Positions 1 to 26,115 are shown, counted from the stretch's first letter. The stretch: DNA of 64,000 nt from Alphaproteobacteria bacterium UBA3864 (GCA_002393065.1 DGGW01000004.1:16461-80460), one strand, 5' to 3'. Numbers and translations: made by a program. The notes: generated from the letters alone by a model not told the origin.

Positions 1-111
1 GTCAGTTTATCACAACAGGCCGCCCGCATTGAAGTTTTTTCGCAACAAAACTTGATTTTCTCGCCCGAAACGCTCAAAATAATAAAAGTTTTTTAATGGG
101 GTTCGGTTTTT

Positions 112-1860
112 ATGCTTTCAAAATTATCTGTTTGCATAATGTTTCTTTCGGTGCTTTTTTCATCCGTTCCGGCCGGAGCCGTTTTGACGGGGGAAACGAA
201 AAATCCGACAAAACCGACACCGGCGGCGGTCGGTTCCTATATGCTGTATCTGCAGGCGAAACAGGATTTGGACTATCCTTCGGCGATCAACTTTCTGCAC
301 GCCGCCATAAAGGAAGACCCCGACAACGCTTCGTTAAACACGGAAATGTTCGCGCTTTTATCATACGAAGGCCGCCTCAAGGAGGCTTTTCCGTTTGCGC
401 AGGCGGAACTGAGGCGCAATCCGGCATCGTTGCTTCCGACGTTGATTTCCGTCGCTTATCTGGCCAAGACCGGTGATTATAAAGAAGCGCTGAAACAAAT
501 CGAATCCTACCCCGAAAAAGAAGAAAACGCTTTCCTTTTCCCGTTGCTCGAAGTTTGGATCCGCGCGGGATTGAACGACAGGAAGAAAGCCGAAGCGGCC
601 TTGTCGAAACTGAACCGCCGCGGAACGGAATCGCTTTATTTTTTCCATACCGCCTTGCTGAAAGACTACTTTAACGATTCGGACGCCGCCCGCGAAAACT
701 TCCAAAATTTGCTGGGCGAACCGGGCGGCCTGTCTTTGCGGGCCGCACAGGTGTACGGGAATTTTCTGCTTCGCGAAGGCGATGACAAAAAATTCAAAGC
801 CCTGATGAAAGCCTATCGGAAGAATCCGAAAACGTACGCGTTGATCGACGAACTGTTCTTTACGGCCGGCGCCCGCTTCGCCGGAAGGAAGATCCCCAAA
901 TCCGTTTCCACCCCCGAACGGGGATTGGCCGAAGCGTTCTTCGACATTTCGGGCAGTTTGTCGGAAAAGGGAAATTCCGAAACGTCGATCTTTTTCATCC
1001 GGACGGCACTGGCTCTGGATTCCGGTTTGTCGCTGGCCCGTTCCCTGCTGGGCGAGCAATTGGAAAAAGAGGGGCGCTACAAAGAAGCCCTGAAACTTTA
1101 CGAAGCGGAAAGCGAAACGTCCGAAACCTATTTTTACGGCCAAATTCGCGCCGCCGTCCTGCTGGCCAAAAAAGGCGATATCGAAAAAGCCGAAAAACGG
1201 CTGCATTCTTTGGCCGACAAACGCAACGATTCCACGATTCCGTGGACGACTCTCGGCGAAGTGATGATCGAAGCGAAAAAATACGATCGCGCCGTCGACG
1301 CTTATACCGAAGCCTTAAACAGAACGGACGTGCTGACCCGCGCGGACTGGACGCTGTTGTACAGCCGCGGAACGGCCTACGAACGCGCCGGAAAGTGGTC
1401 CGAAGCGGAGGAAGACCTGCAACGCGCCCTGATGCTTTCGCCCGATCAGCCTCTGACGCTGAATTACCTCGGTTATTCGTGGCTGGAACGCGGAAAAAAT
1501 ATTTCCGAAGCGACAAAAATGCTGGAACACGCCGTCCGTATGGCGCCCGAAGACGGCTATATCGCCGATTCGCTCGGTTGGGCTTATTATCTGCGAAAAC
1601 AATACGTCAAAGCCTGCGACATTCTGGAAAAAGCGGTCGAAGCCTCCCCCGGCAGCGCGGTCATCAACGACCACCTCGGCGACGTGTACTGGCGTATAGG
1701 CCGCAAACGCGAAGCCGTGTTCCAATGGAAAAAAGCTTTGTCCGTCAATGATGATCTGGACGCCGAAGGACGGGATCGCGTCACTGAAAAAATCAAAAAG
1801 GGACTGGACGCCGTCGGAGATAAAATCACGGTCGTCATGACGGAAAAAAAGAAAAAATGA
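112..1860 (+). CDS. TPR-repeat protein with N-terminal signal peptide
   Basis: 582-aa ORF. Hydrophobic N-terminus MLSKLSVCIMFLSVLFSSVPAGA. Repeated TPR-like helical motifs (AYxEAL, WxxLGxxYxxxG). Stop overlaps the ispE start in ATGA; TPR-ispE pairing is typical of alphaproteobacteria. Confidence 0.75.
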   Translation: MLSKLSVCIMFLSVLFSSVPAGAVLTGETKNPTKPTPAAVGSYMLYLQAKQDLDYPSAINFLHAAIKEDPDNASLNTEMFALLSYEGRLKEAFPFAQAELRRNPASLLPTLISVAYLAKTGDYKEALKQIESYPEKEENAFLFPLLEVWIRAGLNDRKKAEAALSKLNRRGTESLYFFHTALLKDYFNDSDAARENFQNLLGEPGGLSLRAAQVYGNFLLREGDDKKFKALMKAYRKNPKTYALIDELFFTAGARFAGRKIPKSVSTPERGLAEAFFDISGSLSEKGNSETSIFFIRTALALDSGLSLARSLLGEQLEKEGRYKEALKLYEAESETSETYFYGQIRAAVLLAKKGDIEKAEKRLHSLADKRNDSTIPWTTLGEVMIEAKKYDRAVDAYTEALNRTDVLTRADWTLLYSRGTAYERAGKWSEAEEDLQRALMLSPDQPLTLNYLGYSWLERGKNISEATKMLEHAVRMAPEDGYIADSLGWAYYLRKQYVKACDILEKAVEASPGSAVINDHLGDVYWRIGRKREAVFQWKKALSVNDDLDAEGRDRVTEKIKKGLDAVGDKITVVMTEKKKK

Positions 1861-2702
1861 TCACCGTTTCCGCCCCCGCGAAAGTCAATCTGTATCTGCA
1901 CGTCGTCGGAAAAAGACAGGACGGCTATCACTTGCTTGACAGTCTTTTCGCGTTCACGCGCGACGGCGATGAAATCGTCGTCGAAAACAGCGACGATCTG
2001 ACGCTGACGGTCACAAACCCCGATTTGAGCGCCGGCGAAGACAACATCGTGATGAAAGCGGCGCGCAAATTGGCGCAAGCTTTGGATATCGAACCGAAAG
2101 CCGCGATAACTTTGCGCAAAAACCTGCCCGTCGCGTCGGGGATCGGCGGCGGATCATCGGACGCCGCCGCGACATTGGAAGCGTTGCAGCTTTTATGGGG
2201 AAAACGGCTTGAACCAGCCGCGTTGCACCGGTTAGCGACAGAGCTCGGCGCCGACGTGCCCGCGTGTTTGGAAAAAAAGGCCGTCGCCGTTTCCGGCATC
2301 GGCGAGATCCTGACGCCCGCGCCGGCTTTGCCCCCGTTCGCCGTTTTGCTGGTCAACCCGAACAAACCCGTATCGACGCCCGCCGTTTTCAAAGCCCGCC
2401 GCCCTGTTTTTTCCAAAAAAGCGCCCTTGCCGCCCGAAGCGTTCGCCGACGCAGACCTTTTCGTTCGCGAACTGAAAAAAAGGCATAACGATTTGCAGGA
2501 CGCCGCCTGCGTCATCGAACCGGCCGTCCGCGACGTGCTGGCCGCGCTCGAAAAACGGGATAACGCCTTGTTTTCAGCCATGTCCGGCAGCGGCGGAACC
2601 TGCTTCGCCCTGTTTTCAACGGAAGAAAACGCCCGAAAAGCCGCCGTTGAAATCGCCGGAAACCATCCCGATTGGTGGGTGAAACCGAGCGTTTTGATCT
2701 GA
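1857..2702 (+). CDS. ispE: 4-diphosphocytidyl-2-C-methyl-D-erythritol kinase
   Basis: 281 aa. N-terminus MITVSAPAKVNLYLHVVGKRQDGYHLLDSLF and GHMP-kinase glycine motif PVASGIGGGSSDAAA. Confidence 0.9.
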   Translation: MITVSAPAKVNLYLHVVGKRQDGYHLLDSLFAFTRDGDEIVVENSDDLTLTVTNPDLSAGEDNIVMKAARKLAQALDIEPKAAITLRKNLPVASGIGGGSSDAAATLEALQLLWGKRLEPAALHRLATELGADVPACLEKKAVAVSGIGEILTPAPALPPFAVLLVNPNKPVSTPAVFKARRPVFSKKAPLPPEAFADADLFVRELKKRHNDLQDAACVIEPAVRDVLAALEKRDNALFSAMSGSGGTCFALFSTEENARKAAVEIAGNHPDWWVKPSVLI

Positions 2703-2768
2703 AAATATCGCCGGACGGTTCCGAATTTGGCAAAACGAATAAAAAGCCGTTGAGAAGACCAGCTTTTT

Positions 2769-2796
2769 TTGATATAAAATCTTGTCTAGTTATCGT
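2769..2796 (+). promoter_or_regulatory. candidate sigma70-type promoter for the RND efflux operon (TTGATA, 16-nt spacer, TATCGT)
   Basis: Hexamers sit in the 115-bp spacer between ispE and the adaptor gene; the -10 is weak. Confidence 0.3.
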
Positions 2797-2816
2797 CGCT
2801 GTTTCGGCGACTTTTC

Positions 2817-4016
2817 GTGTTTGGAGACCTTTCGATGTTACAAAATATTCGTCGTTTTTCCTTTTGCCTGATCGCCGTTGCGACCGTTTCGGGATTGAGC
2901 GGTTGTTTGAAGCAGAAACAAGCCGCCGCTCCCGTCATGCAAAAACCGCACGTAACCGTCAGCAAAGCCGTTTACGGCGCTTATACGGAACATTTTTCGT
3001 TCCCCGCCCGCGTGGAAGCCGTCGAATCCGTTACGCTGAAAACCCGCGTTTCCGGCTTTTTGAAAGAACGCCTGTTTGAAGAAGGCGATATCGTCAAAAA
3101 AGGTCAGCTGCTGTTCACCATCGAACGCGAACCGTTCGAAGCGCGCGTCGCCGAAGCGGAGGCGAACCTCGCCAAAGCGAAGGCCGACGCTAAAAATTCG
3201 CAACTGAACTTCAACCGCGCCCTCGAATTGCGCAAAACGGGCAACATATCGCAATCGACCGTCGATACCCGCGAAGCAGAAAGCACCGTTGCCAAAGCCG
3301 CCGTTCTGCAGGCGGAAGCCGCGCTGAACATCGCGAAACTGGACCTTGACTACACCAACGTCAAAGCGCCGTTCACCGGCAAAATCGGTCTGGCTGCCTT
3401 TTCGTCGGGCGAATATCTGCCCGCCAATACCGTTTTGGCGCAAATTGTCAGCTTTAACCCGATCAACGCGATCTTTTCCGTTTCCGAACAGGAATTGCTT
3501 TCCATGCAGAAAGCCGGCGTTTTCAACAACAACGGCAATCTTTCCGTTTCGCTGATCATGGCGGATTCCTCCGTTTACCGTTACAGCGGCCAGATCAACT
3601 TCACCGACGTCGTCGTCAACGACGGAACGGATACCATCAAGCTCCGCGCTGTTTTCCCGAACCCCGAAAAACAGCTGGTTTCCGGTCAGTTTGTTTCCCT
3701 GTTGATGGAATACGAAGCGCCGACCGAAAAAATCATCATCCCGCAGGAAGCGCTGATGTCTTCCGTCGCGTCCAAGTACGTTTACGTGATCGATTCCCAG
3801 AACAAAGTCGTCAACAAACCGGTTCAGGTCGGTGTCGAACAAGGCAAAAACATCGTCGTCCTGAACGGATTGGAAGCCGGTGAGCTGGTCATCCGCGAAG
3901 GCCTCCAGAAAGTCCGCCCCGGACAGGAAGTCGTCATCGACATGCCCGCCCCTGCGAAGCCCGTCGAAAATACAGCCCCCGCCACCGTCGAAAGCATCGA
4001 CGATATTGAAGGATAA
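2817..4016 (+). CDS. RND efflux periplasmic adaptor (membrane fusion protein, AcrA/MexA-like) lipoprotein
   Basis: 399 aa. Lipobox LSGC, coiled-coil segment AEAEANLAKAKADAKNSQLNF and a beta-barrel/MP domain typical of the HlyD/MFP family. An alternative start is at 2835. Sits 7 nt upstream of the RND permease. Confidence 0.85.
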   Translation: MFGDLSMLQNIRRFSFCLIAVATVSGLSGCLKQKQAAAPVMQKPHVTVSKAVYGAYTEHFSFPARVEAVESVTLKTRVSGFLKERLFEEGDIVKKGQLLFTIEREPFEARVAEAEANLAKAKADAKNSQLNFNRALELRKTGNISQSTVDTREAESTVAKAAVLQAEAALNIAKLDLDYTNVKAPFTGKIGLAAFSSGEYLPANTVLAQIVSFNPINAIFSVSEQELLSMQKAGVFNNNGNLSVSLIMADSSVYRYSGQINFTDVVVNDGTDTIKLRAVFPNPEKQLVSGQFVSLLMEYEAPTEKIIIPQEALMSSVASKYVYVIDSQNKVVNKPVQVGVEQGKNIVVLNGLEAGELVIREGLQKVRPGQEVVIDMPAPAKPVENTAPATVESIDDIEG

Positions 4017-4022
4017 AACCGT

Positions 4023-7000
4023 ATGTTTTCGCGTATTTTTATCAAACGCCCCCGTCTGGCGATTGTCATTTCTCTGGTCATCACGATCGCCGGCCTGATC
4101 TCGCTGAAAAACATTCCCGTGGCGCAACTGCCCGATGTCGTTCCGCCGTCCGTTCAGGTTTCGGCGCGCTATCCCGGCGCTTCGGCCGAAGTTATCGAAC
4201 AGACCATCGCGCAGATCATCGAATCGCAGGTCAACGGCGTCGACGACATGCTCTATATGGAATCGAGCAGCGCGAACGACGGCAGCTATTCCCTGACGGT
4301 AACGTTCGCATCCGGCACCAATCCGGACATGAACACGGTCAACGTGCAGAACCGCATCAACCAGATTTCGACGAAACTGCCCGCCGAAGTGCAGCAACAA
4401 GGCGTCACGGTCAAGAAAAGAACGTCGAACATGTTGCTGGGCTTCATGCTGTATTCGCCCGACAACACGCGCGACGACAACTTTCTGGCCAACTACATGA
4501 ACATCCGCGTCAAGGACGTTTTGTCCCGCGTGCGCGGCGTCGGCGAAGTCAACACGTTCGGCGACAAGGACTTCAGTATGCGCGTCTGGCTGGATCCGCA
4601 AAAGCTCGCCAACCTCGGCATCGGCAACGCGGAAGTTATGGCGGCGATCGCGTCGCAGAACATCCAGCCGGCCGTCGGTTCCGTCGGCGCGCCGCCGGCC
4701 CCCTCCGATCAACAGATGCAATTCACGATCAAAACGTCGGGACGATTGAGCACGCCGGAACAGTTCGGCGACATCATCATCCGCGCCAACAAAGACGGCG
4801 GTCTGCTCAAACTGAAAGACGTCGCGACGATAGAGCTGGGAACGACGTCTTACGCCACGGGCACCCAATTCAACGGCAGGATCGCTTCCGGCGCGGTCAT
4901 CAATCTGGCTCCGGGCGCCAACGCGATGGACGTCGCTCACGGCGTAAAAACGGAACTGGAACGCATGAAGGCGTTTTTCCCGGACGGCGTTGATTACGTC
5001 ATCATATTCGATACGACGTTGTTCATCGAATCGACGGTCAGCGAAGTCGTTCATACGATTTTTGAAGCTTTCGTTCTGGTGTTGCTGACGGTTTACCTGT
5101 CTTTGGGAACGTGGCGCGCGACGCTGATTCCGGCCATCGCCGTTCCGGTATCCCTGATCGGCACGTTCATCTTCATGGGCTTGTTCGGCGTTTCCGCCAA
5201 CACCGTTTCTTTGTTGTCCATCGTTCTGGTCATCGGCATCGTGGTCGACGACGCCATCATGGTCGTTGAAAACACCGAACGCGTCATCAGCGAAGAACCG
5301 TCTTTGCCGATTCCCGACGCCGTCGCCAAGGCGATGGCGCAAATCACCGCGCCGATCATCGCGATCACGCTGGTCATTCTGTCCGTGTTCGTCCCCGTCA
5401 TCTTCATTCCGGGCATCACGGGACAGCTGTTCAAGCAATTCGCCGTTACGGTGTCGTGTTCGATGATGATTTCAGCCGTCAACGCATTGACGCTTTCTCC
5501 GGCGTTATGCGCCATTTTGCTGCGGCGAGAGGATCAGAAAACGCGAGGCCTCGTGCCGTGGGTCATGCGGCAGATCGACCGCGGACGCGACGTTTATACC
5601 GCGACCGTGCGCAAGCTCGTTCGTCATTCGTCTTTGTCGATTCTGATCATCGCGGCCGTCGTCGCAGGCGCGTGGCAACTCAATAAGCTAACGCCGGCCG
5701 GCTTTCTGCCCGACGAAGACCAAGGCATGTTCATGATCGACATCCAGTTGCCGGAAGGCGCCGCGATCGACAGAACCAGAAACGTTTTAAAGCAGGTTTA
5801 CGATATCCTCAAACAGAATCCGGCCGTCAAAAACACGATGCAGATCGCCGGATACAGTTTGATCGGCGGCAGCGGTCCGAACATGGCGATGTCGATCGTC
5901 GGTCTGAAACCTTATGAAGAACGTCGCGACCCGTCCATGCAGGTCAAAGCCATCGTTGCGGATCTCCAGCCGAAATTCAACAAACTGATGGGCGCCAACA
6001 TCCGCGCGTTCAACCTGCCCGCCATTCCGGGCGTCGGCGTCGCCAACGGCTTTGATTACCGCTTGCAGAACGCGAACGGCGACGCTGTCGAAAACATGGA
6101 AAGAATCATGTTCAAAATGCTGATGGCCGCCAATCAGGATCCCAAATTGCGAATGGTTTACAGTACGTTCAACACCTCAACGCCGCAATTGTTCCTGGAA
6201 CTCGACCGCGTCAAAGCGCAAATGCTGGGCGTCAACATCAAGGACGTGTTCTATCAGCTTCAAACAACGCTGGGATACGTTTACGTCAACGATTTCGCTC
6301 TGAACGGCCGTGTTTATCAGGTCAACGTTCAGGGTGCGGCGGATTCCCGTTCCACCGCCGAATCGGTTTCGCGCCTGTATGTGAAAAACAACAAGGGCGA
6401 AATGGTCCCGTTGCGCTCGCTCGTTACGATCAAACCCGTTTTAGGCCCCTTGTCCCTGACCCGATACAACAACTCGATGACGGTCAAGATCAACGGTTCG
6501 GCCGCCCCCGGTTTCAGCTCCACACAAGCGATGGACGAAATGGAAAAGCTGTCCAAACAGATTTTGCCGGCGGGATACGAATACGAATGGACCGGCATGT
6601 CTTTGCAGGAAAAGACGGCGGCCGGCCAGATGCCCGTCATTCTGTTTCTGGCGTTCCTGTTCGCGTATCTGTTCCTGGTCGCGTTGTACGAAAGCTGGAT
6701 GATCCCGTATCCCGTTTTGCTGTCCGTGTCCGTCGCGTTGCTGGGCGCGCTGTTTTTCCTGTTCGCGCTGGGACTGGAAAACAACGTCTACGCGCAGATC
6801 GGTATGGTCCTGTTGATCGCGCAGGCGTCCAAGAACGCGATTCTGATCGTCGAATTTGCGAAAGAACTGCGCGAAAAAGACAATATGGAACCTGAAGCGG
6901 CGGCGGTTCAGGCGGCGCATTTGCGTTTCCGCGCCGTTATGATGACGGCCGTTTCCTTCATTCTGGGATTGTGGCCGCTGGTCATCGCGACCGGCGCCGG

Positions 7001-7190
7001 CGCGATCGCCCGCCGCTGTATCGGTACGACCGTGTTCGGCGGCATGATCTTTGCGACGGCGTTCGGTATTCTTGTCGTGCCGATGCTGTTCGTCGTCTTT
7101 GTCAAACGTCGTGAAAAGTTCCACACACGCCGCAAAGCCAGAATGGAAAAACGCGAACAGAAGCGTTTGCAGCGCATGATGATGTCCTGA
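4023..7190 (+). CDS. RND multidrug efflux permease (HAE1 family, AcrB/MexB-like)
   Basis: 1055 aa. Start MFSRIFIKRPRLAIV; 12-TM/large-periplasmic-loop architecture with conserved AcrB motifs (VLVIGIVVDDAIMVVEN). Confidence 0.9.
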   Translation: MFSRIFIKRPRLAIVISLVITIAGLISLKNIPVAQLPDVVPPSVQVSARYPGASAEVIEQTIAQIIESQVNGVDDMLYMESSSANDGSYSLTVTFASGTNPDMNTVNVQNRINQISTKLPAEVQQQGVTVKKRTSNMLLGFMLYSPDNTRDDNFLANYMNIRVKDVLSRVRGVGEVNTFGDKDFSMRVWLDPQKLANLGIGNAEVMAAIASQNIQPAVGSVGAPPAPSDQQMQFTIKTSGRLSTPEQFGDIIIRANKDGGLLKLKDVATIELGTTSYATGTQFNGRIASGAVINLAPGANAMDVAHGVKTELERMKAFFPDGVDYVIIFDTTLFIESTVSEVVHTIFEAFVLVLLTVYLSLGTWRATLIPAIAVPVSLIGTFIFMGLFGVSANTVSLLSIVLVIGIVVDDAIMVVENTERVISEEPSLPIPDAVAKAMAQITAPIIAITLVILSVFVPVIFIPGITGQLFKQFAVTVSCSMMISAVNALTLSPALCAILLRREDQKTRGLVPWVMRQIDRGRDVYTATVRKLVRHSSLSILIIAAVVAGAWQLNKLTPAGFLPDEDQGMFMIDIQLPEGAAIDRTRNVLKQVYDILKQNPAVKNTMQIAGYSLIGGSGPNMAMSIVGLKPYEERRDPSMQVKAIVADLQPKFNKLMGANIRAFNLPAIPGVGVANGFDYRLQNANGDAVENMERIMFKMLMAANQDPKLRMVYSTFNTSTPQLFLELDRVKAQMLGVNIKDVFYQLQTTLGYVYVNDFALNGRVYQVNVQGAADSRSTAESVSRLYVKNNKGEMVPLRSLVTIKPVLGPLSLTRYNNSMTVKINGSAAPGFSSTQAMDEMEKLSKQILPAGYEYEWTGMSLQEKTAAGQMPVILFLAFLFAYLFLVALYESWMIPYPVLLSVSVALLGALFFLFALGLENNVYAQIGMVLLIAQASKNAILIVEFAKELREKDNMEPEAAAVQAAHLRFRAVMMTAVSFILGLWPLVIATGAGAIARRCIGTTVFGGMIFATAFGILVVPMLFVVFVKRREKFHTRRKARMEKREQKRLQRMMMS

Positions 7191-7198
7191 TAAAAAAA

Positions 7199-7222
7199 CG
7201 GGACGGGAAAAATCCCGTCCCT
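7199..7222 (+). terminator. hairpin GGGACGGG-AAAAAT-CCCGTCCC after the RND permease stop
   Basis: Perfect 8-bp GC-rich stem directly after the TGA; the downstream T-tract is weak. Confidence 0.45.
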
Positions 7223-7244
7223 TACAAATCCCGAAAGGAATAAA

Positions 7245-7661
7245 ATGGTTCAATTATTTGATAAAATCTCTTCGGTCTTGAAGGATAATATTATAACGCC
7301 TTTGGACGAACGGCGGCTAAAGGAAATGTGCTATATCGGCGATCTGCCCCTTTTAAAAGAACAGCGCACGCATTTCATTCTGCCGATCGGAGTCGTCATT
7401 TCAAAGTTTGCCACCATCGGAAAAGATTGCGTTATTTACCAGAACGTGACCATCGGCGGACGCGATTTCATCCAAAACGGCGATCCGAAAAATTATCCTC
7501 ACATCGGCGATAATTGCATCATTTATCCGGGCGCTTTCATCGTCGGGCCGATCACGATCGGGGAAAATTCCGTTATCGGAGCCAACTCCGTCGTCGTGTC
7601 GAATATCCCGCCGAATTCGATCGTCGGGGGCAATCCCGCCCGAATCATGCCGAAAAGCTGA
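7245..7661 (+). CDS. left-handed beta-helix (hexapeptide-repeat) acyltransferase
   Basis: 138 aa with hexapeptide repeats (IGDNCIIYPGAFIVGPITIGENSVIGANSVVV). GC is lower than in the core genes. Confidence 0.7.
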   Translation: MVQLFDKISSVLKDNIITPLDERRLKEMCYIGDLPLLKEQRTHFILPIGVVISKFATIGKDCVIYQNVTIGGRDFIQNGDPKNYPHIGDNCIIYPGAFIVGPITIGENSVIGANSVVVSNIPPNSIVGGNPARIMPKS

Positions 7662-7691
7662 CGACGCGAATTCTTGCTCCACACCAGAAAA

Positions 7692-7707
7692 TGTTTCACG
7701 TAAAACA
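7692..7707. promoter_or_regulatory. parS-like site TGTTTCACGTAAAACA (one mismatch to the canonical ParB-binding palindrome)
   Basis: Matches 15 of 16 positions of the two perfect copies at 49206 and 63015 and shares their AAAATG 5' flank. Confidence 0.55.
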
Positions 7708-7892
7708 CACCGTCCCGCCGGAATGGATTGCTTTCGTTCCATCGCGGGAAAGGCGTGATATCGTCGTTTCAACACTTAAACAATTAAGCACGTATTTAAT
7801 TAAATGTTTTTCCCTTTGTTTTCAAACATTAAAAATTAAAACTTCATTTACTCGTTTAATTGTGTTATGGTTTCCGGTGAAAGGATGTTTTT

Positions 7893-8249
7893 ATGACGCT
7901 ATCGCAAAACGACACTCCCTCGAACGAAAACGGATTAACGACGCCGAATTTGACGGCCGTTGCCAACGCCTTCAAGTCGTTAGATGATGATATGCGGCTT
8001 CGGATCTTTTGGTTGTTGCGCGACGGCGAAAAAAGCGTCGGAGAAATAGCGGCTTTGATGAAAATGAGCTGTCCGGCCGTTTGTCATCATTTAAAACAGC
8101 TGAAAATCGGCGGATTGCTGGTCAGCCGCCGCGACGGCAAAGAGGTTTACTATACAAAAGCGCAAACGACGCGAACGAATCTGCTTTGCCTGACGATCGA
8201 AGGGTTGATAAAACTCGGTCCGGAGACGTCCGCTTCTTCGCTTCGTTGA
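7893..8249 (+). CDS. ArsR/SmtB-family winged-helix transcriptional regulator
   Basis: 118 aa. HTH segment LRLRIFWLLRDGEKSVGEIAALMKMSCPAVCHHLKQLKIGGLL. Preceded by a 230-bp very AT-rich spacer. Confidence 0.7.
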   Translation: MTLSQNDTPSNENGLTTPNLTAVANAFKSLDDDMRLRIFWLLRDGEKSVGEIAALMKMSCPAVCHHLKQLKIGGLLVSRRDGKEVYYTKAQTTRTNLLCLTIEGLIKLGPETSASSLR

Positions 8250-8360
8250 AAAACGGGAGTTTGCTTAAAAGACCGAAACGATCAAATCGAAGTGAACAAT
8301 GACGGACTTGAAAAATCCGGTCGATTCATTAATAATCATTCCTGTTCATTGGCAGAAACG

Positions 8361-8450
8361 AAAAAAAGCCCTGATTTCTCAAGGCTTTTAAATTGGTGCG
8401 GATAGCGGGACTCGAACCCGCACGAGGATAAGCCTCAACAGATTTTAAGT
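8361..8450. repeat. left copy of a roughly 90-bp direct repeat (tRNA-Leu 3' half plus downstream terminator)
   Basis: About 95% identical to 12655-12745. Contains ...CTGATTTCTCAAGGCTTTT..TGGTGCGGATAGCGGGACTCGAACCCGCACGAGGA.AAGCCTCAACAGATTTTAAGT. Confidence 0.8.
8394..8450 (-). pseudogene. truncated tRNA-Leu fragment (3' 57 nt, from the anticodon loop to CCA)
   Basis: The reverse complement equals the 3' part of the intact tRNA-Leu at 12689-12775, then diverges exactly in the anticodon loop. Confidence 0.8.
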
Positions 8451-8553
8451 TAAAGCTTTGAATTTTTCACCGTTGTTTACGGACATTCTTTGTAATTCAT
8501 ATTCTATAATGAAATCAAAGAGTTATTTGATTACTTCCGTTTTTCGTAATTAA

Positions 8554-8823
8554 AATCTTTCCATCACGATTGATGTTAAAAGTTGCAAAGAGGTTGCAAC
8601 GGAAATCCGCAAAGCGACGGCGGAAACGGAGGCGGCAAAGAGGAAAACGGCGGATTTGAGACGTGAATATGACGCTTTTATCGAACGGACGAACAAGAAT
8701 TACTCTTTCTTCAAAAGCTTTCTTGAATCGCGTCCGGAATGGAAAAAGGAGTTCCTGCGACAGCGTGAGGAGTTGGCGCGGTCGCAGGAAAACCGTTCCA
8801 GAAATTACGGACGGGAACGGTAA
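8554..8823 (+). pseudogene. paralog of the small protein at 11850-12110, lacking a canonical start codon
   Basis: Open frame ...RREYDAFIERTNKNYSFFKSFLESRPEWKKEFLRQREELARSQENRSRNYGRER*. No in-frame ATG/GTG/TTG in the 5' part. Confidence 0.35.
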
Positions 8824-8962
8824 TAACATTAGGGCATCTTTCTGACAAAATCGTAGTATTATTCCTAATTAGAATAGCTATCTATAAAAACAAACGATTA
8901 GACATAGGATCGAAAACTCTTTAAGGTTAAATCAATACCAACCGAACAAAGGAGTTTTCAAA

Positions 8963-10021
8963 ATGACATTGACGAAGAAAGTGCTGACATCTGTTGCCGC
9001 AGTAAGCGTGTTTTTTACGATGGGGTGCGCCTCAATCTGCAAAAAAGATCCGACAAAGCCCGTTTCTATGGTTAAAGAATGGGATAAAGTGTTTCCGAAA
9101 AGCGATAAGGTTGAACATAAAAAAGTGACCTTTAAAAATCGCTACGGTTTATCTTTGGTTGCCGATTTGTATTTGCCGAAAGACTTGAACGGCAAAGCGG
9201 CGGCGATCGCGGTCAGCGGTCCGTTCGGCGCGGTTAAAGAACAGTCTTCCGGTCTATATGCGCAAACGATGGCGGAACGCGGTTTTGTCACTTTGGCTTT
9301 TGATCCGTCCTATACGGGCGAAAGCGGCGGACAGCCCCGCAACATAGCGTCTCCCGACATCAATACCGAAGATTTTTCCGCCGCCGTCGATTATTTAAGC
9401 GTTCAGCCGTTTGTCGACGCGGATAAAATCGGAATCATCGGCATTTGCGGCTGGGGTGGTTTTGCTTTGAACGCCGCAGCGGCAGACACACGCATTAAAG
9501 CGACCGTCACGTCGACGATGTATGATATGACGCGGGTTTCCGCCAGAGGATACAACGATTCAATGTCTGCGGACGATTTGTATAAGATGCGGCAGAATTT
9601 GAACAATCAACGCACACGGGATTATAAAAACGAAACTTTCGCCGAAGCCGCCGGATTGCCGGACAAGCTGACGGGAAGTGAACCGCAGTTTGTAAAAGAC
9701 TATTTCGGGTATTATAAAACGCCGTTAGGGTTTCATTCCCGTTCCATCAATTCCAACGGTCATTGGAAGACGACTTCCTCTTTATCTTTAATTACACAGC
9801 CGATTTTGTCTTACGCAAACACGATTAAAAGCCCCGTTTTGATGATTCACGGAGAAAAAGCGCATAGCCGTTATTTCAGCGAAGGGGCTTTTAAAAAACT
9901 TACCGGAAAAAACAAGGAATTGATGATTATTCCGAACGCGAACCACACGGATTTATACTATAAAACCGATGTCATTCCGTTTGATAAAATGGAGCGGTTC
10001 TTCAAGACAAATCTGAAATAA
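8963..10021 (+). CDS. alpha/beta-hydrolase-fold lipoprotein (dienelactone-hydrolase/BAAT-like, Cys nucleophile)
   Basis: 352 aa. Strong RBS AAGGAG. Lipobox FFTMGCAS, nucleophile elbow GICGWGG and a C-terminal His (NHTD). Confidence 0.75.
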   Translation: MTLTKKVLTSVAAVSVFFTMGCASICKKDPTKPVSMVKEWDKVFPKSDKVEHKKVTFKNRYGLSLVADLYLPKDLNGKAAAIAVSGPFGAVKEQSSGLYAQTMAERGFVTLAFDPSYTGESGGQPRNIASPDINTEDFSAAVDYLSVQPFVDADKIGIIGICGWGGFALNAAAADTRIKATVTSTMYDMTRVSARGYNDSMSADDLYKMRQNLNNQRTRDYKNETFAEAAGLPDKLTGSEPQFVKDYFGYYKTPLGFHSRSINSNGHWKTTSSLSLITQPILSYANTIKSPVLMIHGEKAHSRYFSEGAFKKLTGKNKELMIIPNANHTDLYYKTDVIPFDKMERFFKTNLK

Positions 10022-10043
10022 AGAAAAAACGGCGGGACAAAAA

Positions 10044-10382
10044 ATGAACATTCTTGTCGGAAGCATAATGTTGGCAGTCGCGCTTGAAAACAATCCGACG
10101 GCGGCGGCGATTTCGGAAAAATTGCCGCTGACCGTTGATATGGCGGAGCTGAACGGCAACGAAAAATACGTTTATCTGCCTTTTTCCCTGCCGTCAAATC
10201 CGGAGCCTGTCGGAAACATCAAAGCCGGAGATGTGATGTTGTTCGGCGATGATTGTCTGGTGATTTTCTATCAGAATTTTAAAACGTCCTACACTTATAC
10301 AAAAATAGGACGGATAGAAAATGCGGAAAATCTTTTTGAAATTCTGAAACGCGGAAAAGTATCCGTCTCTTTTACAAAATAA
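10044..10382 (+). CDS. cyclophilin-like-fold protein
   Basis: 112 aa. Pattern ...AVALENNPTAAA...LPLTVDM..L.....YLP........G...AGDVMLFGD.CLVIFY resembles the cyclophilin-like family that is commonly paired with flavodoxin-like genes. Confidence 0.6.
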   Translation: MNILVGSIMLAVALENNPTAAAISEKLPLTVDMAELNGNEKYVYLPFSLPSNPEPVGNIKAGDVMLFGDDCLVIFYQNFKTSYTYTKIGRIENAENLFEILKRGKVSVSFTK

Positions 10383-10393
10383 AGGAGTTTGAT

Positions 10394-10933
10394 GTGAAAA
10401 AAGTTGTTATCGTTTCTTCTTCGCCGCGTAAAAACGGCAATTCTGAAATACTGGCGTTTGAAGCCGCCAAAGGCGCAAAAGACGCTGGAAATGAAGTCGA
10501 AATTTTGCTTTTGCGCGACAAAACAATCAATTTCTGCCGCGGCTGTCTGGCTTGTCAAAAGATGCTGAAATGCGTCATTAAAGACGATATGGCGGAAATG
10601 ATTGAAAAAGTCAGAAACGCTGATACCGTTATTTTCGCAACGCCGATCTATTATTATGAAATGAGCGGACAGCTGAAAACTTTTCTCGACCGGTGCAATC
10701 CGATCTATCCGCAGGTATACGCTTTTCGTGATGTTTATCTGTTAAGTTCCTCTGCGGAGGAAGGGCAAAATGCCGCCGAACGCGCCGTTTCCGGTTTAAA
10801 AGGCTGGATCGAATGCTTTGAAAAGGCAAAGTTCGCCGGAGCCTTTAACGCGGGCGGCGTTACCGCGCCGAACGATGTTCTGAAAAACGCGGAAATGCTG
10901 AAAGCCGCTTATGATATGGGCAGGAATATTTAA
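10394..10933 (+). CDS. flavodoxin-like NADPH-dependent FMN reductase / iron-sulfur flavoprotein family protein
   Basis: 179 aa. GTG start 7 nt after AAAGGAG. N-terminus MKKVVIVSSSPRKNGNSEIL; motifs CRGCLAC and IFATPIYYYEMSGQLKTFLDR. Confidence 0.8.
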   Translation: MKKVVIVSSSPRKNGNSEILAFEAAKGAKDAGNEVEILLLRDKTINFCRGCLACQKMLKCVIKDDMAEMIEKVRNADTVIFATPIYYYEMSGQLKTFLDRCNPIYPQVYAFRDVYLLSSSAEEGQNAAERAVSGLKGWIECFEKAKFAGAFNAGGVTAPNDVLKNAEMLKAAYDMGRNI

Positions 10934-11808
10934 ACGCGAACGGCTTGTTCGACACATTCCAATAACAAAGCGGCAACGGGTGTAAAAGCCTGATACTTCC
11001 GCCAAACAAAATAGAACGGACATTCCAACGGCGGGTTCAGCGGGATAAAGCTGAACTCGCTGTCTTTTCCGCAATACAGCAATTTGTCAAACGTCAGCAT
11101 CACCGCCATATTTTCCCGAACAAACGCCGTTCCGTTATACGGCAGGGTGTTAAAGCCGATAAAATCCAATTCATCCCTTTTTTCGCCGCACCAACGCGGT
11201 AAATCTTTATGAAAGCACTGTTCGGAACAAATCAGGGAATACTTCTTCAAATCGTTAAAAGAAACACTTTCCAGACGGCTCAACGGGTGATTTTTCAGAA
11301 CGACCGCCCCGAAGGAATCATTTTCGGGAACACGGACGACATTGTATTTCGATAGATTGGGATTTTCTACGAATACAGCCAAATCCAAAAAACCCTTGTC
11401 CAGTTTTTCCGCAACGTGTTCCGTATCGCCGCTGAACATATGAAAATGAATGTTCGGACAGGTTTCCCGCACTTTTTTCAATGCCTTGACCAGATAACGG
11501 ATTTGATACGATTCCGCACACCCCAAATACACGTCGCCGCCGGTCATATCGCTCAGCGTTTTAAATTCGCCGATGGTTTTATCCGTCATACCGACAATGT
11601 CCTCCGCGCGTTTTTTCAGGAGAAGTCCTTCTTCGGTCAACACCATTTTAGTGCTTTTACGCAGGAAAAGCTTCTTACCCAATTCCTCTTCCAATTCTTT
11701 CAACGCTTTTGACAAAGTCGGTTGAGTGACGTGAAGAATTTCCGACGCTTTTGTCATATTTTCCATACGGGCGATCGTCAAAAAATAACGTAACGATTTG
11801 ATTTCCAT
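10930..11808 (-). CDS. LysR-family transcriptional regulator
   Basis: 292 aa. N-terminal HTH MEIKSLRYFLTIARMENMTKASEILHVTQPTLSKALKELEEELG. Convergent 4-nt overlap with the flavodoxin-like gene. Confidence 0.85.
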   Translation of the reverse strand: MEIKSLRYFLTIARMENMTKASEILHVTQPTLSKALKELEEELGKKLFLRKSTKMVLTEEGLLLKKRAEDIVGMTDKTIGEFKTLSDMTGGDVYLGCAESYQIRYLVKALKKVRETCPNIHFHMFSGDTEHVAEKLDKGFLDLAVFVENPNLSKYNVVRVPENDSFGAVVLKNHPLSRLESVSFNDLKKYSLICSEQCFHKDLPRWCGEKRDELDFIGFNTLPYNGTAFVRENMAVMLTFDKLLYCGKDSEFSFIPLNPPLECPFYFVWRKYQAFTPVAALLLECVEQAVRV

Positions 11809-11849
11809 TTGTCCTCTCTGGTTGATACGGAATATCCGGTCAATGCTTT

Positions 11850-12110
11850 TTGTTTCTGCCCATAAGATTACGGTATTTTTCTTTTATAAGAAACAGTTTA
11901 TTGAACGGGATAAGAAACGTTCCGTTGCGGCGGGAATACAACGCTTTCATCGAACGGACGAACAAGAATTATTCTTTCTTCAAAAGCTTTCTTGAATCGC
12001 GTCCGGAATGGAAAAAGGAGCTTTTGCGACAACGTGAAGAATTGATCCGATCGCAGGAAAACCGTTCCAGAGATTACGGACGGGAACAATCAATAGGACG
12101 GGAAAGGTAA
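11850..12110 (+). CDS. small conserved hypothetical protein (island-end paralog family)
   Basis: 86 aa. The C-terminal ~55 aa are paralogous to 8665-8818; synonymous differences outnumber non-synonymous ones in this frame (8 vs 5), so the plus frame is the coding one. The true start is uncertain (TTG possible). Confidence 0.45.
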   Translation: MFLPIRLRYFSFIRNSLLNGIRNVPLRREYNAFIERTNKNYSFFKSFLESRPEWKKELLRQREELIRSQENRSRDYGREQSIGRER

Positions 12111-12192
12111 ATACGAACGCTTACGTTTGAAGCACGACGTAATAAACAACAGTTTATTGCCAAAATGAAAAGAATCGTATAAAAAGTAAAAG

Positions 12193-12224
12193 TCCGGTGG
12201 GTGCAACCGCCGGACTTTTGAAAC
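12193..12224 (+). terminator. rho-independent terminator hairpin GTCCGGTGG-GTGCAA-CCGCCGGAC followed by TTTTG
   Basis: A 9-bp stem with one G.U-type mismatch and a T-run, about 80 nt after the small ORF stop. Confidence 0.45.
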
Positions 12225-12447
12225 CCCACAAGGAATCAATATACCTAATTCCTCTGCTCGGTTTCAGGATATGAAAATGTAAGGCTTTTGTCAAGCATTT
12301 TCAGTTGGTTCCTTCTCAACGCGGTAATGTTTCCGCAAAATGGAGGAATAATACGTTTTTATGAGATCAAAGTCCGCCTTTATTGGCTGGCTTTGCGCAT
12401 TATCGAGATTCTGTCTGTCTTAATCAGATAGGCGGAAGATCGGAGAA

Positions 12448-12478
12448 CGGCAGGGATTTTCCCTGCCGTTTCTTTTCA
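12448..12478 (+). terminator. rho-independent terminator ACGGCAGGG-ATTTT-CCCTGCCGT followed by TTCTTTTC
   Basis: Perfect 9-bp stem with a T-rich tail, directly after the 20-codon micro-ORF. Confidence 0.5.
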
Positions 12479-12654
12479 CGGGATTTCGTTTTTAACAAGC
12501 GGACAAAACAAATAAAAACCCCGCCTTTCGATTTCAGAAATCGGTTGCAAAAACAGAGGCGTTTTACAATAATGGATTCGGAAACGGGTTGCAAAGAGGT
12601 TGCAACGGTGATTTTTCAAAGGAAAGGCTTTTTCTGCGGCGAATGTTTCGGGCA

Positions 12655-12745
12655 ATAAAAAAGCTCTGATTTCTCAAGGCTTTTCGATTGGTGCGGATAG
12701 CGGGACTCGAACCCGCACGAGGACAAGCCTCAACAGATTTTAAGT
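12655..12745. repeat. right copy of the roughly 90-bp direct repeat (terminator plus tRNA-Leu 3' half)
   Basis: See 8361-8450; three short mismatch clusters separate the two copies. Confidence 0.8.
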
Positions 12746-12775
12746 CTGTTGTGTCTACCATTCCACCATATCCGC
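12689..12775 (-). tRNA. tRNA-Leu (anticodon UAA), type II with long variable arm
   Basis: Reverse complement GCGGATATGGTGGAATGGTAGACACAACAGACTTAAAATCTGTTGAGGCTTGTCCTCGTGCGGGTTCGAGTCCCGCTATCCGCACCA folds as a cloverleaf. Anticodon loop CTTAAAA; CCA is encoded. Confidence 0.9.
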
Positions 12776-12801
12776 GTCTTTTTCGTTTTTAACACAAGGC
12801 G

Positions 12802-26038: not shown

Positions 26039-26115
26039 CGGAGTGTAGCTCAGCTTGGTAGAGCACTACGTTCGGGACGTAGGGGTCGGAGGTTCAAATC
26101 CTCTCACTCCGACCA
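26039..26115 (+). tRNA. tRNA-Pro (anticodon CGG)
   Basis: CGGAGTGTAGCTCAGCTTGGTAGAGCACTACGTTCGGGACGTAGGGGTCGGAGGTTCAAATCCTCTCACTCCGACCA folds as a cloverleaf. Anticodon loop TTCGGGA; CCA is encoded. Confidence 0.9.

Follow-up and report, generated by a model that had tools for sequence, protein, structure and literature searches.

A stripped genomic island at the tRNA-Leu(UAA) gene of a gut alphaproteobacterium and its probable origin from a small integrative element

The DNA analysed here is a single stretch of 64 kb (hereafter the window), the backbone of which comes from an uncultured gut alphaproteobacterium. Between a tRNA-Leu(UAA) gene and a displaced fragment of the same gene it carries a segment that an earlier note, made from the sequence, had read as a decayed genomic island. 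We compared this island with metagenome contigs and contigs of relatives, which are referred to by L-numbers (L024–L027 being Logan contigs).

The ends of the island

ARAGORN detected one intact tRNA-Leu(UAA) gene, on the minus strand at 12689–12775 (Rfam tRNA score 65.7 bits), and a repeat search revealed a direct repeat of 89 nt (8362–8450 and 12657–12745; 96% identity) that encloses ~4.2 kb. The four mismatches between the copies are at 8370 (C)/12665 (T), 8390–8391 (AA)/12685–12686 (CG) and 8429 (T)/12724 (C). In the left copy, the 57-nt 3' part of tRNA-Leu (8394–8450) begins at position 31 of the tRNA, on the 5' side of its anticodon loop, and runs to the encoded CCA; it is followed by a terminator-like hairpin (8364–8389) and a T-run within 8362–8393. 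The segment has an intact tRNA gene at one end and a fragment of the same gene in direct orientation at the other; a regenerated tRNA gene and a displaced fragment are known to mark the ends of islands, and anticodon-centred sites are the commonest class (PMC4383910). The coordinates and the 57-nt length given in the earlier note were exact, and the repeat that it described is real, with an identity of 96% rather than 95%. The features of the two ends are as follows.

8362–8450, minus strand: left direct repeat, displaced tRNA-Leu(UAA) 3' fragment (8394–8450) and terminator hairpin (8362–8393); repeat match, single copy in empty-site strains
8451–8605, plus strand: integrase-proximal arm, with a promoter-like site (8527–8556) and the integrase gene start; homology to L051
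8573–8605, plus strand: integrase remnant, ATG and 10 codons (MLKVAKRLQRK); equals the start of the L051 and L043 integrases
8582–8602, plus strand: GTTGCAAAGAGGTTGCAACGG, a repeat resembling arm-type sites, with two GTTGCAA units at a spacing of 11 nt; exact 21-nt copy at 12588–12608
12435–12656, unstranded: tRNA-proximal arm, with GGTTGCAA at 12543, 12587 and 12598 and the palindrome CGATTTCAGAAATCG at 12529–12543; homology to relatives
12657–12745, minus strand: right direct repeat, terminator (12657–12688) and the 57 nt at the 3' end of the intact tRNA; repeat match
12689–12775, minus strand: intact tRNA-Leu(UAA), the integration target; ARAGORN and Rfam

The arms inside the repeats recur in other contigs, among them the integrase-bearing L051. 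The tRNA fragment and left arm together (8391–8604) are 97% identical to L051 10342–10128, whereas the backbones of the two are only ~73% identical. On the right, 12506–12776 is 83–84% identical to L051, L040 and L052, with a weaker tblastx match out to ~12435, and a 29-nt core of this tRNA-proximal arm is invariant in six elements, some of them at other tRNAs. The left arm runs into the start of an integrase gene. In L051 and L043 the integrase is intact, is 403 aa long and starts MMLKVAKRLQRKRGIMKANF; the window retains 11 codons, and the homology stops after 8605. A promoter-like site lies directly upstream of this start, and the stub now heads a 28-codon open reading frame (ORF; 8573–8659) whose TGA stop (8657–8659) overlaps the TTG of the next ORF (8656). 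The statement in the earlier note that no integrase or transposase survives is correct for intact genes and missed this stub.

The 21-mer GTTGCAAAGAGGTTGCAACGG is present as exact copies in the two arms, where none would be expected by chance, and all four occurrences of the octamer GGTTGCAA in the 64 kb fall within these arms. Since the left 21-mer overlaps the integrase stub, it is also the 5' end of the integrase gene. The GTTGCAA units are probably arm-type sites for the PF13356 domain of the integrase, as suggested by their 11-nt spacing, their shared orientation in the two arms and their conservation across elements with different cores. The pair that lies over the integrase start may allow autoregulation, and the orphaned promoter-like site may now drive the genes downstream of it. 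The palindrome CGATTTCAGAAATCG is perfect over 15 nt, stands beside a GGTTGCAA unit and is conserved only in part in L051 and L020.

Apart from the stub, a Pfam scan of ORFs, six-frame fragments and tblastx against family members revealed no integrase, xis or mob gene in the island and no other relic of these: the six-frame fragments of the non-coding parts gave no integrase or other domain, and tblastx gave nothing outside the arms. Ten mid-size ORFs checked as candidates for an integrase elsewhere in the window were housekeeping genes. The lack of an integrase or transposase ORF in the island would also suit a local tandem duplication of the tRNA region, or an insertion mediated by a transposon or insertion sequence (IS). 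Such an origin is hardly credible, because the sequence beside both repeats is homologous to the arms of integrase-bearing elements and the start region of the integrase gene is present. Moreover, repeat, ORF and Pfam searches of the island found no transposase, no IS and no terminal inverted repeats, and the four differences between the repeats are unlike a fresh target duplication.

Cargo and composition of the island

The following features lie between the arms.

8656–8823, plus strand: small ORF D1, 55 aa from TTG, left copy of a 163-nt repeat; repeat and ORF search
8963–10021, plus strand: alpha/beta hydrolase resembling PA2218/YcjY, Cys in the nucleophile elbow, probable lipoprotein signal; Pfam and PA2218 alignment
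10044–10382, plus strand: cyclophilin-like fold protein, Cyclophil_like2 (PF18050); Pfam
10394–10933, plus strand: NAD(P)H-dependent FMN reductase/flavodoxin-like protein (FMN_red); Pfam
10930–11808, minus strand: LysR-family regulator; Pfam
11925–12110, plus strand: D1', second, diverged copy of the small ORF and 163-nt repeat; repeat and ORF search
12111–12434, unstranded: non-coding island-specific spacer, no recognisable gene relic; no Pfam or tblastx signal

Pfam confirmed the four cargo genes that the earlier note had called. The LysR gene is convergent with the three-gene operon, their 3' ends overlapping by 4 nt. The hydrolase aligns end to end with Pseudomonas aeruginosa PA2218 (PDB 2HDW; E value 5e-124) and also with Escherichia coli YcjY. 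Its GICGWGG nucleophile elbow, including the cysteine residue, is conserved in PA2218/2HDW, and thus the label of Cys-nucleophile hydrolase, already proposed in the note, holds at the sequence level. From the domains, the cargo would be a LysR-controlled operon for a Cys-hydrolase (a probable lipoprotein), a cyclophilin-like partner and an FMN reductase, and a flavin-dependent hydrolytic or detoxification cassette is a plausible reading of this content. The cargo in the window matched no PADLOC defence model. The hydrolase and cyclophilin-like genes are also adjacent on the Acinetobacter baumannii plasmid pABA-2f10 (L036 3362–4941), where their neighbours are IS1008 and a major facilitator superfamily transporter, and hydrolase homologues are present on plasmids from several phyla. 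These two genes seem to form a mobile module that occurs in distant phyla, and the plasmid spread of the hydrolase homologues agrees with an accessory module that is widely exchanged.

The composition of the island differs from that of its surroundings. Its GC content is 43.9%, against 51.8±3.4% (minimum 44.5%) in 514 segments of the same size elsewhere in the 64 kb, which bears out the lower GC reported in the note, and its tetranucleotide distance is 0.327, against 0.178±0.036 elsewhere (maximum 0.284). It therefore has both the lowest GC and the most atypical composition of the window. The cargo also looks foreign by homology, as the hydrolase matches P. aeruginosa PA2218 so closely while relatives of the neighbouring backbone protein PlsC do not exceed 56% identity outside the species (the named matches are 'MAG: Alphaproteobacteria bacterium', MAG being metagenome-assembled genome) or 38% among GTDB species representatives. 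Outside the island, the genes for a hexapeptide-repeat transferase (7245–7661) and ArsR (7893–8249) likewise have a lowered GC (~46% over 7201–8361).

The cargo is flanked by an internal direct repeat of 163 nt (8656–8818 and 11925–12087; 89% identity). In one frame the two copies differ at 14 codons, ten of them synonymously and four non-synonymously, so that the repeat encodes, or once encoded, a small charged protein. In strain L035, D1 is 69 aa long with its own ATG. D1 matched no family of Pfam, PHROG or NCBIfam and no plasmid, and its single homologue among 5.8 billion proteins is itself from the same island. We considered D1 as a relic of the C-terminus of the relaxase of related elements and discarded this (BLASTP E value 4 against the L043 relaxase, and 18 for the coiled-coil ORF of L001). 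The internal repeats also raised the idea of a tandem accretion of two elements, which was rejected as there is no internal att (attachment site) copy and no third tRNA fragment.

A family of related integrative elements

Scanning metagenome contigs for the arm motif of the island ends recovered relatives, with a backbone ~73% identical to that of the window, that have the same ends around different contents. The most informative features of these elements are listed below.

L051 (49-kb human-gut contig), 4290–4377: tRNA-Leu(UAA)
L051: terminator and arm, 84% identical to window 12776–12506
L051, interior: WYL/WCX regulator, ankyrin-repeat protein and 273-aa protein
L051, 8951–10162: 403-aa tyrosine integrase (PF00589 and PF13356 Arm-DNA-bind_3)
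L051, 10128–10342: arm and displaced tRNA fragment, 97% identical to window 8604–8391
L043: integrase, Mob_Pre (MobV) relaxase, FtsK/SpoIIIE ATPase, McrBC and WYL regulator
L068–L070: integrase, HTH_17 (excisionase-type) protein, Mob_Pre relaxase, three ORFs of unknown function and a type I restriction-modification system

In L051 the direct repeat comprises only the 60-nt tRNA part, and the terminator that comes after the displaced fragment is another, native one, which shows that the terminator beside the regenerated tRNA was supplied by the element. The repeat in the window is as long as 89 nt because the native terminator of this species is nearly the same as that of the element. The integrases of L068–L070 are 84–88% identical to that of L051, and their arms are ~82% identical to those of the window. 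Alphaproteobacteria MAGs contain many relatives of the integrase, one cluster at 94% identity having 310 members. The tRNA-proximal arm, including the invariant CACCGTTGCAACCTCTTTGCAACCCGTTT core, was also found directly 3' of tRNA-Leu(CAA) (L062 8203–8437) and tRNA-Ser(CGA) (L059 418–704), on contigs beyond which the integrase ends lie. The same arm module has therefore been combined with different tRNA targets, and the family appears to have switched targets while keeping the arm. Judged by their gene content, the relatives are small integrative, mostly mobilizable elements (integrative mobilizable elements, IMEs) with swappable, mostly defence cargo. The arm-binding domain of their tyrosine integrase is N-terminal, and in most of them the integrase is accompanied by an Xis-like HTH_17 protein and a MobV relaxase.

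Integration at tRNA genes and the P4-like architecture of the integrase, with its arm-binding domain, occur in phages and their satellites too, and the nearest phage integrases are 25–29% identical. A prophage or phage-satellite remnant is nevertheless highly improbable: the island and the seven related elements examined contain no phage genes, the mobility genes of the relatives, where present, are those for the MobV relaxase and the FtsK-like ATPase, none of 2.9 million viral contigs has the arm motif, and there were no meaningful PHROG matches.

Several further observations concern these relatives. Besides the WYL/WCX regulator, the stretch 4966–8490 of L051 encodes the ankyrin-repeat protein, which is 554 aa long and matches the PADLOC candidate PDC-M72A, and the 273-aa protein, which belongs to no family and has an HNH-like HHIDNNGHHN motif; this stretch may be an uncharacterised defence module. 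In L068, positions 1–9835, on the chromosomal side of the displaced tRNA fragment, encode an HTH_17 protein, an AAA ATPase, an ASCH protein, a T5orf172-like protein and an Eco57I-type methylase, a block resembling a second mobile or defence island, arranged in tandem at this site. In L043 a Mrr-type (type IV) restriction endonuclease (166–1083) lies between an ArsR homologue and the displaced tRNA fragment, outside the element that carries McrBC. The distance from tRNA-Pro(CGG) to tRNA-Leu(UAA) is 0.6 kb in the L051 species (3577–4377) and 13 kb in the window (tRNA-Pro at 26039–26115), so the backbone has been rearranged between these lineages.

Occupancy of the site within one species

In four conspecific contigs (L024–L027), reached through the 99% identical PlsC variant P0001 and with flanks 96.5–97.8% identical to the window, a single copy of the 89 nt, with an intact tRNA-Leu(UAA), links the lipoprotein/PlsC side and the ArsR/hexapeptide-transferase/AcrB side, and the arms of the element are absent. 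This is the empty site that the earlier note had suggested looking for, an uninterrupted tRNA-Leu beside the ArsR side. The island itself is present in the window and in five metagenome samples (L001–L005, L035), in contigs that typically end at the repeats, and its copies are 97–100% identical between strains, similar to the backbone. The samples that carry it are ERZ28612947, ERZ28655517, ERZ27255466, ERZ12302812 and SRR5322979. A further contig of the same species (L020; 98.9% flank identity) has an L051-type element at the same tRNA, with 94% identity over 782 nt that include the end of the WYL gene. One species thus shows three states of the site: empty, occupied by an autonomous-type family member and occupied by the stripped island. 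Calling the insertion old, as the note did, holds in a relative sense: the occupancy varies within one species, although between strains the island copies have diverged about as much as the backbone.

The left junction differs between strains. In L001 about 36 integrase codons are fused to an unrelated coiled-coil ORF, and in L035 a deletion has taken out the integrase stub and part of the arm. The integrase remnants are therefore nested (11 codons in the window, ~36 in L001 and none in L035), which supports an origin by deletion. In this region of L001 (3885–4099) the fused stub runs into a scaffold gap of Ns; the left D1 copy of this strain may be hidden in the gap, and the structure of the variant is uncertain.

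In the flanks, the hexapeptide-transferase/ArsR region is 90–95% identical between occupied and empty strains and the rest ~97%. L024 has a 20-nt indel at ArsR, and gene calling gave no ArsR in either L024 or L025. Contigs L030–L032, with a PlsC ~55% identical, were considered for comparison of the site and set aside as uninformative, having a different gene order and no tRNA-Leu there.

Origin and fate of the island

Each end of the island is homologous to an arm of the integrase-bearing elements that occupy this tRNA in related bacteria, and 11 integrase codons remain at 8573–8605. These findings point to an integrase-mediated origin with subsequent loss of the machinery, as the earlier note had supposed. 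Taken together, our results make it very likely that window 8451–12656, with one copy of the repeat, is a deletion derivative of a small tRNA-targeting integrative element that has lost its integrase and kept its att sites. In this scheme the ancestral element would have carried an attP (the attachment site of the element) in which arms bearing GTTGCAA repeats flanked a terminator and a copy of the 3' half of tRNA-Leu. The anatomy of the site and the homology of its ends show that attP recombined with the chromosomal tRNA-Leu(UAA), regenerating the tRNA and displacing the original 3' fragment to the far end. Later, the integrase gene was deleted past codon 11 while both att sites and both arms were kept, leaving the LysR-regulated hydrolase/cyclophilin-like/FMN reductase operon of foreign composition. 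Such an island should be unable to move alone; excision and re-integration would require a sibling integrase in trans or a preceding tandem accretion, and an alternative fate would be loss by homologous recombination between the 89-nt repeats.

Several points weigh against this scheme. With 64 kb of the genome visible, neither an excision product nor an attP junction nor an integrase acting in trans was seen for the island, and the empty site fits precise loss as well as a state that was never occupied. How the cargo joined the element is left without an account, and a simple deletion does not account for the diverged 163-nt coding repeat around the cargo. The right arm is without a 28-nt segment that the relatives have and may be impaired by this loss. 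Finally, at the mismatches in the terminator part the left repeat copy reads C-AA, the right copy T-CG and the empty site C-CG, which would place a simple single crossover in the terminator (8371–8389), whereas the relatives imply a crossover in the tRNA part (the 60-nt identity block in L051). The mismatch positions also vary among strains, and gene conversion or homologous exchange has probably blurred this record. Placing the crossover from the four mismatches was consequently dropped, since it conflicts with the identity block of the relatives and the positions are strain-variable.

The mosaic of mismatches fits homologous exchange better than one fixed crossover, and it bears on a second reading, in which the polymorphism arises from homologous recombination only: the island would be a dead remnant, lost between the 89-nt repeats and spread through flanking chromosomal DNA. 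This is quite possible, falling a little short of an even chance. A repeat of 89 nt at 96% identity suffices for RecA-dependent deletion, and the higher divergence of the hexapeptide-transferase/ArsR flank between occupied and empty strains agrees with it. However, recombination leaves the original insertion unexplained, for which the integrase stub and the arm homology indicate site-specific integration. It is compatible with the origin by deletion from an integrative element, as a later phase of it.

The polymorphism could also reflect ongoing mobility, with the island as an active non-autonomous hitchhiker that sibling integrases with Xis move in trans, or carry after tandem accretion. The retention of both arms with intact repeats, the 97% identity of window 8391–8604 to an intact element of another species, the sibling element at the same site in a conspecific strain and the precise borders of the empty site are in its favour, and cis-mobilization of cis-mobilizable elements (CIMEs) is documented in other bacteria (PMC5704250). 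On the other hand, neither circular junctions nor tandem arrays were observed, the right arm has its 28-nt deletion, and the island copies diverge like the backbone (97%), as vertical inheritance predicts. In addition, the left junction decays differently in three strains, the L035 deletion even taking the arm repeat, which suggests relaxed constraint. We therefore regard such mobility as somewhat unlikely. A bolder version, in which the island is a living hitchhiker of an undescribed modular tRNA-targeting family, moved in trans by sibling integrases that compete for the same site and with the 163-nt repeats as handles for cargo exchange, is more doubtful still. The deletion derivative of an integrative element remains the preferred explanation.

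The island is of an ordinary kind, mapped very cleanly, and does not change the understanding of genomic islands. Its value lies in showing all three occupancy states of one tRNA site from metagenomes, in a lineage without a close reference genome, with the disabling deletion mapped exactly. What is new is an undescribed element family (arm-binding-domain integrase, Xis-like protein, MobV relaxase and defence cargo) that appears to be common in gut Alphaproteobacteria. The analysis also flags the PA2218-like hydrolase/cyclophilin-like module as one that travels between phyla.

Comparison with known systems

Among the islands catalogued by Islander, those of the anticodon-centred 'A' class (PMC4383910) resemble the present one in the regenerated tRNA, the fragment that starts in the anticodon loop and the tyrosine integrase family. 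Islander islands normally hold an integrase gene, whereas the window island has only 11 codons of one, the gene being intact in L051, L043 and L068–L070. The identity block of the window also differs in running 32 nt beyond the tRNA, through the terminator. The IME NBU1 of Bacteroides, at tRNA-Leu (PMC5704250, Table 1), is like L043 and L068–L070 in being small, with a tyrosine integrase, a single relaxase, a tRNA-Leu 3'-end target and a gut habitat, a likeness drawn from their description. An IME has its own integrase and a relaxase or oriT, and the window island, being without integrase and relaxase, is not one.

A CIME keeps its att sites and has lost the genes for integration and transfer (PMC5704250). 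As read from the sequence, the island has both of these properties: attL and attR (the left and right attachment sites) are kept, both 89-nt repeats and both arms being present, and the integration and transfer genes are gone. As summarised in that review, the CIMEs related to ICESt1/ICESt3 of Streptococcus thermophilus (Pavlovic 2004, Bellanger 2011, in PMC5704250) resemble the island in that sibling autonomous elements use the same site. On the same summary they differ in host, the present one being an uncultured gut alphaproteobacterium, in their parents, which here are small MobV IMEs rather than integrative and conjugative elements, and in their target, here tRNA-Leu rather than fda; for the window island the likeness is drawn from sequence alone.

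The cargo hydrolase, in turn, is like PA2218 (2HDW) and E. coli YcjY (5XB6) in its full-length alignment and its GICGWGG elbow. It differs from both in being island-borne, in its lipoprotein-like signal and in its linkage to the cyclophilin-like and FMN-reductase genes.

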